14,589 bases of DNA, from IMG/VR virus record IMGVR_UViG_2609459801_000008; one strand, 5' to 3'. The stretch is from a virus (Duplodnaviria > Heunggongvirae > Uroviricota > Caudoviricetes). This document shows positions 12,554 through 13,133 of the stretch, in pieces. Below the pieces are notes generated by a model. That model saw only the letters and a list, made by a program, of their open reading frames with translations, searched no databases and was not told where the DNA came from. The position numbers and the translations under genes are program-made. Each line of letters opens with the position of its first letter. Position 1 is the stretch's first letter.

Positions 12554-13078
12554 ATGAAGTTATGGCCTGTGTTGACTGGCATTGCACTCTCTTTCACTCT
12601 TATAGCATGTAAGGCCCCGACACCACCTAAAGGTGTGCAGCCGATTACAAATTTTGACGCCAACCGCTACCTCGGAAAATGGTATGAAATAGCTCGCCTC
12701 GAGAACCGGTTCGAACGTGGTCTGGAACAGGTCAGCGCTACTTATGGAAAACGGAACGACGGAGGGATTCGTGTACTTAACCGTGGATACGATCCAACGA
12801 AAAATAAATGGAGCGAGAGCGAAGGTAAAGCATACTTTACTGGAGATACTAAAACTGCAGCATTGAAGGTTTCGTTTTTTGGCCCCTTCTATGGTGGCTA
12901 TAATGTAATCAAACTGGATGATGAGTATAAGTATGCTCTTGTCAGTGGTCCGAACAGAGAATACCTATGGATTCTGGCAAGGACCCCAACTATTCCAGAT
13001 AAAGTAAAAGCAGACTATGTGCGAACCGCTCAAAAGTTGGGATTCAATGTCAATGAATTATTATGGGTTAAACAATAA
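12554..13078 (+). CDS. Bacterial lipocalin (Blc-like) outer-membrane lipoprotein
   Basis: 174 aa. Signal peptide with lipobox LIAC (Cys19); lipocalin motifs NFDANRYLGKWYEIARLENRFE, KVSFFGPFYGGYNVI, EYLWILARTP, closely resembling E. coli Blc. The only plus-strand gene in the phage region, convergent with Q. Confidence 0.85.
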   Translation: MKLWPVLTGIALSFTLIACKAPTPPKGVQPITNFDANRYLGKWYEIARLENRFERGLEQVSATYGKRNDGGIRVLNRGYDPTKNKWSESEGKAYFTGDTKTAALKVSFFGPFYGGYNVIKLDDEYKYALVSGPNREYLWILARTPTIPDKVKADYVRTAQKLGFNVNELLWVKQ

Positions 13079-13103
13079 AATCCCTACCCGAAATAATACT
13101 TAT

Positions 13104-13133
13104 TAGAAAAAGACCAGCCTTTGGGGAGGCTGG
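13104..13133 (-). terminator. Candidate intrinsic terminator between Q and the cargo island (possible tR' equivalent)
   Basis: Stem CCAGCCT / AGGCTGG (7 bp) with a 6-nt loop; on the minus strand it is followed by TCTTTTTCT. Located about 100-130 nt downstream of the Q stop. Confidence 0.45.

Follow-up and report, generated by a model that had tools for sequence, protein, structure and literature searches.

The window considered here is a stretch of 14,589 nucleotides (IMG/VR record IMGVR_UViG_2609459801_000008; Caudoviricetes) from a lambda-like Escherichia coli prophage integrated at attLambda. The subject of this report is blc, a gene for a lipocalin lipoprotein which lies on the plus strand of the window, antisense to the phage late operon. 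Around it, the minus strand carries, in order, RusA, the antiterminator Q, a hairpin, the stretch antisense to blc, a ybgA-like gene, an AraC-like gene and the lysis genes (Table 1). An earlier note, made from the letters of the sequence alone, had proposed a Blc-like lipocalin gene in this position and orientation, and the Pfam and NCBIfam profiles, the alignment with the protein of E. coli K-12 and the coding strand are all in agreement with it. The start given for the gene, 12554, is correct but its end is not, since the feature had been drawn to 13133 and the coding sequence stops 55 nucleotides earlier (stop codon 13076-13078); the remaining tail, 13079-13133, holds a hairpin of the minus strand (13113-13134). 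The description of blc as the only plus-strand gene holds for the phage and cargo genes, the other supported plus-strand open reading frame (ORF) being a fragment of an IS3 transposase (50-316).

The product of blc matches the Pfam family PF08212 (Lipocalin_2) with an E-value of 7e-44 (149.7 bits, cut-off 24) and the NCBIfam profile NF007786 ('outer membrane lipoprotein Blc') at 316.1 bits (curated cut-off 267), residues 1-174 falling on profile positions 1-174 of 176; its family in PHROG is 2809. The alignment with K-12 Blc is free of gaps (60% identity), and the solved Blc structures 3mbt (E 3.5e-69) and 1qwd are likewise aligned collinearly and without gaps. As the identity to the solved Blc structures is 60-64%, the Blc fold is taken as certain from the alignment. 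The structurally conserved region 1 of the lipocalins (G-x-W-[YF]-x-I-A) is present as GKWYEIAR at residues 41-48. The chromosomal protein of K-12 (b4149; PDB 1QWD, 2ACO, 3MBT) is of the same family and length and has the lipobox at the same position and the same lipocalin motif, GxWYEIAR. The N-terminus of the window protein reads MKLWPVLTGIALSFTLIAC, followed by K, and the Cys of its lipobox aligns with that of the K-12 lipobox (VVAC). Sorting of lipoproteins in the Lol pathway is governed by the residue at position +2 after this Cys, which here is Lys and not Asp, and sorting to the outer membrane is predicted from it. Judged by these profiles and alignments, the gene is a genuine and intact member of the Blc family of outer-membrane lipocalins. 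At residue 84, the window protein has Asn and K-12 Blc has Gly; in E. coli Blc, a Gly-to-Glu substitution at this residue reduces the binding of lysophosphatidylethanolamine (LPE), and chromosomal Blc has been tied to lysophospholipid handling and gut-barrier effects (PMC7026729).

The closest relatives outside the phages belong to a second Blc lineage of other Enterobacterales, with 74-82% identity as against 60% for E. coli Blc. Ten chromosomal loci (L009-L018; Enterobacter spp., Leclercia, Huaxiibacter, Buttiauxella and Raoultella; Blc identity 74-81%) are the closest of those in which blc has a ybgA-like neighbour, and in every one of them the two genes diverge; a metagenomic contig (L006; Blc identity 82%) has the same arrangement. 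In these loci and in the contig, the ybgA-like gene encodes 319 aa, has 70-73% identity to its phage counterpart and is found 0.9-1.5 kb upstream of blc; the two chromosomal genes are separated by a gene for an MlrA-like MerR regulator, sometimes accompanied by a transthyretin/HIUase-like gene. Among the loci with a Blc identity of 73% or less, a ybgA-like match is found nearby only in L043, where it is 41% identical, partial and about 3 kb off. The phage Blc belongs to the second lineage ('Blc2'), for which the linkage in Enterobacter-type genomes is to the mlrA-like regulator and the ybgA-like gene, and not to ampC and sugE. In the window, the ybgA-like gene, which encodes the 319-aa fusion, is again the divergent partner of blc, is directed with the late operon and is separated from blc by a spacer of 192 bp that has no regulator gene. 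Homology of the phage to the chromosomal loci covers both coding sequences and the blc-proximal ~100 bp of the spacer (alignment A2), and ends at the blc stop codon. Most simply, these comparisons would mean that the divergent pair was captured once and then lost the MlrA-like regulator, and the antisense orientation of blc is best explained as a legacy of this ancestral arrangement. Since one gene of a divergent pair must face the late operon whatever the direction of insertion, orientation alone is no evidence of regulatory design.

The conserved chromosomal locus itself (e.g. L015, 4575-7525) has the ybgA-like gene, the HIUase/transthyretin-like gene, where present, and the mlrA-like gene in one direction and blc2 in the other, and its divergent promoter region of 110 bp holds a strongly conserved block of ~25 nucleotides together with a CTACACT element. 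Such an organisation points to a MerR-type regulon, as yet uncharacterised, with a second Blc among its members. Both Blc lineages are present in Buttiauxella izardii (L017, L022).

The region upstream of the window blc is homologous to those upstream of the chromosomal blc genes of Enterobacter, Leclercia, Buttiauxella and Cedecea (A2). Its CATACT element is aligned to CTACACT of the chromosomal relatives, the phage 1H12 having AATACT, and the identical CTACACT is found in K-12 27 nucleotides before the blc start codon; K-12 blc thus shares the sigma-S-type -10 element at an equal distance from the start codon, and a sigma-S-like promoter may be assigned to the phage gene. K-12 blc is stationary-phase and RpoS dependent according to the passage of PMC4512719 that cites Bishop 1995. 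The earlier note had named a simple paralogue of the chromosomal blc with no change in expression as an outcome that would speak against its reading; in part this is what was found, the gene being a paralogue with the same sigma-S-type -10 at the same position, though a divergent one.

Selection was assessed by pairwise comparisons between the two main phage lineages, the window type and the 1H12 type. The 125 nucleotides upstream of blc diverge by only ~4% between the main lineages, as against a dS of 0.2 in the coding sequence, and the ybgA-proximal part of the spacer by ~19% (alignment A4). The dN/dS ratio is 0.06-0.11 for blc, the 20-21 synonymous versus 5 non-synonymous differences giving 0.06-0.07, while the ybgA-like gene has 0.11-0.14 and Q 0.09. 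Both blc and the ybgA-like gene are under purifying selection. The nucleotide sequence of the window blc is 100% identical to a coding sequence annotated as WP_000780581.1, and the proteins are identical. WP_000780581.1 was quantified by tandem mass tag (TMT) proteomics in carbapenem-resistant E. coli, where it increased 2-3-fold with meropenem alongside envelope-stress lipoproteins; the authors called it 'Blc', and its prophage-borne status was not recognised (PMC13459554, 2026). Expression in lysogens, as the earlier note had envisaged, is supported indirectly by this detection in a proteome, by the dN/dS values and by the conserved upstream region.

Beyond the blc stop codon, the U-run of the minus-strand hairpin ends at 13104, at a distance of 25 nucleotides, and the position of blc immediately downstream of tR' is thus borne out. 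The hairpin folds with -15.4 kcal/mol (z = -3.4), and its stem is unchanged in four phage or prophage lineages (alignment A7). No U-run lies 3' of the hairpin on the plus strand, and a terminator scan of that strand up to 13900 found none. Because the U-run sits on the minus strand, the hairpin is a terminator of the late strand and not of blc. In the window allele, this U-run is broken by a C (UCUUUUU), the three other lineages having 7-8 unbroken U, and the window tR' may be slightly leakier owing to the interruption. A chromosomal origin of the hairpin was rejected on account of its lack of similarity to the regions downstream of the chromosomal blc relatives.

The assignment of this hairpin follows from its likeness to the late region of the Stx phages. 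It lies 100-130 nucleotides past the Q stop codon on the same strand, and the Q genes of the window and of Stx phages are 76-78% identical in nucleotide sequence. The annotated terminator of Stx2 phage II, GCCAGCCTCCCCCAGTGGCTGGCTTTTTT, aligns with GCCAGCCTCCCCAAAGGCTGGTCTTTTT of the window, and the ~55 nucleotides of leader preceding it are also aligned (alignment A6); with the leaders of both Stx2 II and YYZ-2008, the homology takes in the hairpin and ~85 nucleotides of leader. In Stx phages, PR' and tR' have been mapped by differential RNA sequencing (dRNA-seq) and Term-seq at a distance of 258 nucleotides, and the terminated PR' transcript is processed into StxS, a small RNA (sRNA) of 74 nucleotides (PMC7547250, Sy et al. 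2020). By this homology, the hairpin next to Q is tR'. The 3' part of the leader is better conserved between the lineages than the 5' part (A7). The Stx phages resemble the window in having a related Q, in the tR' hairpin and the 3' part of the leader, which are homologous, and in carrying cargo (stx) in this slot; however, stx is co-directional with late transcription and dependent on it, whereas the window blc is antisense, and the leader is ~120 nucleotides at most in the window as against 258 in the Stx phages, without the seed that pairs with rpoS. With the rpoS seed site, the StxS-like leader forms a duplex of -7.6 kcal/mol, with 375 of 500 shuffles as good, and StxS in the same test one of -17.4 kcal/mol, with 5 of 500 as good. 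An StxS-like function for the window leader was rejected, the pairing being no better than chance; the leader may be a distinct sRNA made constitutively in lysogens.

Besides the weak candidate for PR' given in Table 1, a rival candidate, TTGCTG-17-TAACAT, lies ~20 nucleotides downstream of the first and is less conserved (A7). In Stx2 II, a TTTACG-16-TATCAT pair, read by eye, straddles the Q stop codon just as the weak window candidate does and is consistent with the PR'-tR' distance of 258 nucleotides; the putative -35 and -10 of the Stx2 II record itself (locus 2245-2250 and 2225-2230) are located ~155 nucleotides further downstream. The lysis genes lie 3 kb beyond tR' on the minus strand, and since they are beyond blc and on the same strand as Q and tR', Q-modified late transcription must cross blc antisense. 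The earlier note had made the same deduction, and its geometry is supported by Q, by the Stx-homologous tR' leader and by the position of the lysis genes.

An imperfect direct repeat of 20 nucleotides (13144-13163 and 11189-11208; 17 of 20 positions matching), which includes ATATAACAG, flanks the blc-ybgA pair, and the ATATAACAG motif is also present in phage ev243 at an equal distance from Q. Chance produced such a pair of 9-mers in 3 of 200 shuffles, a frequency that is low but not negligible, and the repeat may be a recombination scar or a functional element of the leader. The second copy of the motif (11196-11204), together with a strong promoter-like site at 11260-11231, had led to the proposal of a PR' downstream of ybgA; this was rejected as the main late promoter because the hairpin and leader adjacent to Q are homologous to the mapped PR'-tR' of Stx phages, and it is also disfavoured by ev243, which has ATATAACAG beside Q only. 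A candidate terminator at 10229-10259, in the gap between the AraC-like gene and the holin gene, folds no better than shuffled sequences.

The identity of the gene, the order of its neighbours, the ancestry of the pair, the purifying selection and the homology of terminator and leader are established here, and the literature supplies the detection of the protein and the mapping of PR' and tR' in Stx phages. The overall explanation favoured on this basis, which is probably right, is that of a captured two-gene cargo with autonomous expression in the lysogen, a second outer-membrane Blc as its product and an inherited orientation. The divergent blc and ybgA-like genes form a cargo block in a variable slot between PR'-tR' and the lysis genes, probably taken from a chromosomal locus like that of Enterobacter, Leclercia, Buttiauxella and Raoultella with loss of the intervening regulator gene or genes. 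As the ancestral upstream region with its -10-like element has been kept, blc would be transcribed on its own in the lysogen from these ~100 bp, with stationary phase or envelope stress as the likeliest conditions. The homology of the protein suggests that it would be exported, lipidated at Cys19 and sorted to the outer membrane, where it would act as a second Blc beside the core one and bind lysophospholipids or fatty acids. The likeliest gain from the antisense orientation would be insulation, as transcripts of blc do not head towards the lysis genes. Upon induction, polymerase modified by Q would travel from PR' past tR', cross blc antisense and depress its expression, which is regarded as a by-product and not as the purpose of the arrangement.

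Several observations weigh against this explanation. The Cedecea and Kosakonia relatives, which are 78-80% identical, have no ybgA-like gene nearby, so that the linkage is not universal in the clade, and the GC content of blc (43.8%) is probably below that of Enterobacter-type chromosomes. The -12 position of the proposed -10 element varies, being C in the window, A in 1H12 and T in the chromosomal relatives, and a consensus scan upstream of blc found no canonical sigma-70 promoter. PR' in the window phage has the standing of a candidate, and the proteomic assignment could include peptides shared with the 60%-identical chromosomal Blc.

The same geometry could also be read as an evolved switch, in which lysogens produce Blc and induction actively stops its expression through transcriptional interference and antisense RNA. 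PR'-tR' upstream of blc on the opposite strand, with the lysis genes beyond, is the geometry that such a switch needs; related phages carry an antisense outer-membrane porin gene in the same slot, and the detection in a proteome supports expression in lysogens. However, the ancestral divergent arrangement of blc and ybgA fully accounts for the orientation, and an existing outer-membrane lipoprotein would outlast the short lytic period, so that its shut-off would be of little obvious value. Moreover, the one expression datum is an increase under meropenem, an envelope and possibly an SOS stress, and not a decrease. An evolved switch is, therefore, considered unlikely.

An effect in the other direction, of blc transcription on the phage, would have the blc mRNA extend head-on into PR' and antisense into Q, damping leaky late expression and stabilising lysogeny in the manner of lambda paQ. 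The hairpin without a plus-strand U-run and the lack of any plus-strand terminator up to 13900 would permit such an extension, to which the PR' leader is fully complementary in sequence, and the blc promoter region and PR' converge ~700 bp apart. Nevertheless, the idea is purely inferential and the arrangement is explained without it, Rho could terminate an untranslated 3' extension, and there is no sign that the blc promoter is strong. The proposal is quite improbable, and so to the same degree is its extension that the convergent pair might couple stationary-phase or envelope-stress signalling to the threshold for late-gene expression, with Q-modified transcription reciprocally silencing blc.

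Prophage-borne outer-membrane lipoproteins include known exclusion proteins such as Llp and Cor, a class into which the phage Blc would fit, and blc is very common in prophages; it could, in principle, mask or alter a receptor and act as an anti-phage factor or in superinfection exclusion, the latter being a suggestion of the earlier note. This suggestion found no support. A PADLOC search (E <= 0.01) gave no match for the Blc, YbgA-like or AraC-like proteins, and a literature search on lipocalins and phage resistance returned no role for Blc, one bioRxiv match being concerned with mammalian lipocalin-2. The phage protein is a close, orthologue-type relative of housekeeping Blc; its identity of 74-82% to the chromosomal Blc of other Enterobacterales and its subfamily score favour the ancestral lipid-binding role, and an exclusion function is held to be very improbable. 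Finally, that blc is a decaying passenger without a current function might be suspected from the defective state of the prophage, which has lost 7.6 kb, received an IS3 insertion and has a frameshift in its AraC-like gene, but this is scarcely credible given a dN/dS of 0.06 (20-21 synonymous versus 5 non-synonymous differences), an ORF intact in every copy examined, a conserved upstream region and a detected protein.

The blc cargo gene of lambdoid phages is already known and very common; it has been listed as a moron in more than 50% of the gut temperate lambdas studied by Mathieu et al. 2020 (PMC6969025). The blc moron of 1H12, ev087 and other phages in that study has 97% amino acid identity to the window protein and the same site and orientation between Q and the ybgA-like gene, whereas, unlike in these phages, the window copy sits in a deleted and IS-disrupted prophage; the window allele is of the IdasGreatGrand type (99.4% amino acid identity). 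Twelve sequenced lambdoid phages contain the module, the gene being annotated as 'Lipocalin Blc' in 11 of the records, and the order Q-blc-ybgA-AraC-lysis is shared by phages 1H12 and IdasGreatGrand and by prophages of the lambda-like and Qin-like types. A search for prophages that have the AraC-like gene and lack blc-ybgA gave apparent candidates which turned out to carry both. Of 5426 complete E. coli genomes, 1146 have the 872-bp blc region, nearly always on the chromosome, and 5425 have the core chromosomal blc.

As expected of a moron, blc stands between conserved phage genes and is absent from close relatives (comparison with the ev243 type), and its expression from the prophage is documented in the literature (WP_000780581.1 by TMT, some peptides of which may be shared with chromosomal Blc). 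Of the other features of a moron, a promoter of its own may lie in the conserved upstream region with the -10-like element, where the sigma-70 consensus scan gave no match, and a terminator of its own is lacking, the sole downstream hairpin facing the opposite strand. Phage ev243 has a related Q and lysis genes with 96-97% nucleotide identity to those of the window, and its homology to the window breaks off at 13252 and is found again from 10144 on. In this Q-S slot, the same as that of blc-ybgA-AraC, it carries an antisense porin gene (NmpC/OmpD-like), likewise an outer-membrane gene placed against the late operon. The bor/iss genes of related phages, on the plus strand after Rz, are also outer-membrane cargo against the late operon; cargo of this kind, placed antisense in the late region, is thus well known from lambdoid phages. 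The porin and bor/iss belong to other protein families, and blc, by contrast, arrived with a partner gene co-directional with the late strand.

The remainder of the window describes the state of the prophage. Q has a distant match to the solved Q21 and is annotated as 378 nucleotides in relatives. The AraC-like gene has a GC content of 31.8%; its nearest relatives are YdeO, GadX and HilD, all below cut-off, with YdeO and GadX giving the best similarity in NCBIfam. Its frame of 243 codons is broken in the window by two deletions of one nucleotide relative to strain 81EVA, in A and T homopolymers near 10975 and 10934, and an identical allele occurs in strain MB10; the gene may truly be a pseudogene in this allele, or the same sequencing error in homopolymers may affect both sequences. 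Past Rz, the minus strand continues with trkG, a ParB-like gene and then the head-tail and tail genes. The potassium transporter gene trkG (7365-8840, minus strand, GC 37.7%) directly follows Rz, where related phages carry the opposite-strand bor/iss, and this site is another cargo slot with alternative occupants. In comparison with a near-identical attLambda (bio-ybhC) prophage of strain 81EVA, 7,633 bp are absent at a breakpoint around 5749-5751; the deleted stretch (L005, 14421-22053) comprises the genes for the small and large terminase subunits, portal, head and major capsid proteins. At the left edge, an IS3-family element (1-331; transposase ORF 50-316, plus strand) truncates the tape-measure gene (327-2225, minus strand), leaving a protein of 632 aa as against 1077 aa in 81EVA. 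The window prophage is defective and cannot make virions, and because the genes from terminase through capsid are lost it cannot yield phage on induction. An Rfam scan of the whole window found no family at the gathering score.

Table 1. Positions of blc, its control elements and the neighbouring genes in the window, with the basis of each assignment
Feature	Position	Strand	Basis and remarks
blc-type lipocalin lipoprotein coding sequence	12554-13078	+	ATG-initiated ORF of 174 codons (174 aa)
Lipoprotein signal peptide (predicted)	12554-12610	+	lipobox L-I-A-C, Cys19; sequence read directly
Ancestral blc upstream region	12452-12553	+	conserved block 12455-12485; -10-like CATACT 12516-12521; Shine-Dalgarno AGGA 12544-12547
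tR', intrinsic terminator of the late strand (by homology)	13104-13134	-	8-bp stem 13113-13134, U-run 13104-13112; terminator scan
StxS-like 3' part of the PR' leader RNA	13104-13187	-	alignment A6
Candidate PR', TGGAGA-18-AATAAT	13233-13262	-	weak; overlaps the Q stop codon; 9 of 12 matches in consensus scan
RusA gene	13834-14196	-	first in the minus-strand order RusA-Q-hairpin-(blc antisense)-ybgA-like-AraC-lysis
Antiterminator Q gene	13234-13611	-	Pfam Phage_antitermQ (PF06530), 2.5e-51
ybgA-like gene	11402-12361	-	Pfam PF04463 and PF08349; TudS-type 2-thiouracil desulfidase domain and DUF1722
Regulator gene of the AraC family, the third in the cargo module	10321-11052	-	Pfam HTH_18, HTH_AraC
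Lysis cassette	8960-10133	-	holin 9918-10133 (Phage_holin_2_1), endolysin 9421-9918 (Phage_lysozyme), Rz 8960-9436 (Phage_lysis)

The current understanding of late regulation in lambdoid phages is unchanged by these findings. The useful additions made here are the history of co-capture, the recognition of the hairpin and leader as a PR'-tR' leader of the StxS type, and the genomes with two Blc proteins. The capture history provides a clean example of a chromosomal divergent pair becoming phage cargo after loss of its regulator, and cautions that regulatory design should not be read from the orientation of cargo genes. In about 21% of complete E. coli genomes, two paralogues of Blc are encoded, one phage-borne and one core, and proteomic and single-nucleotide polymorphism (SNP) studies that assume one blc may confuse the core and prophage copies. 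An expressed prophage Blc could contribute to envelope-stress tolerance or to host interaction.

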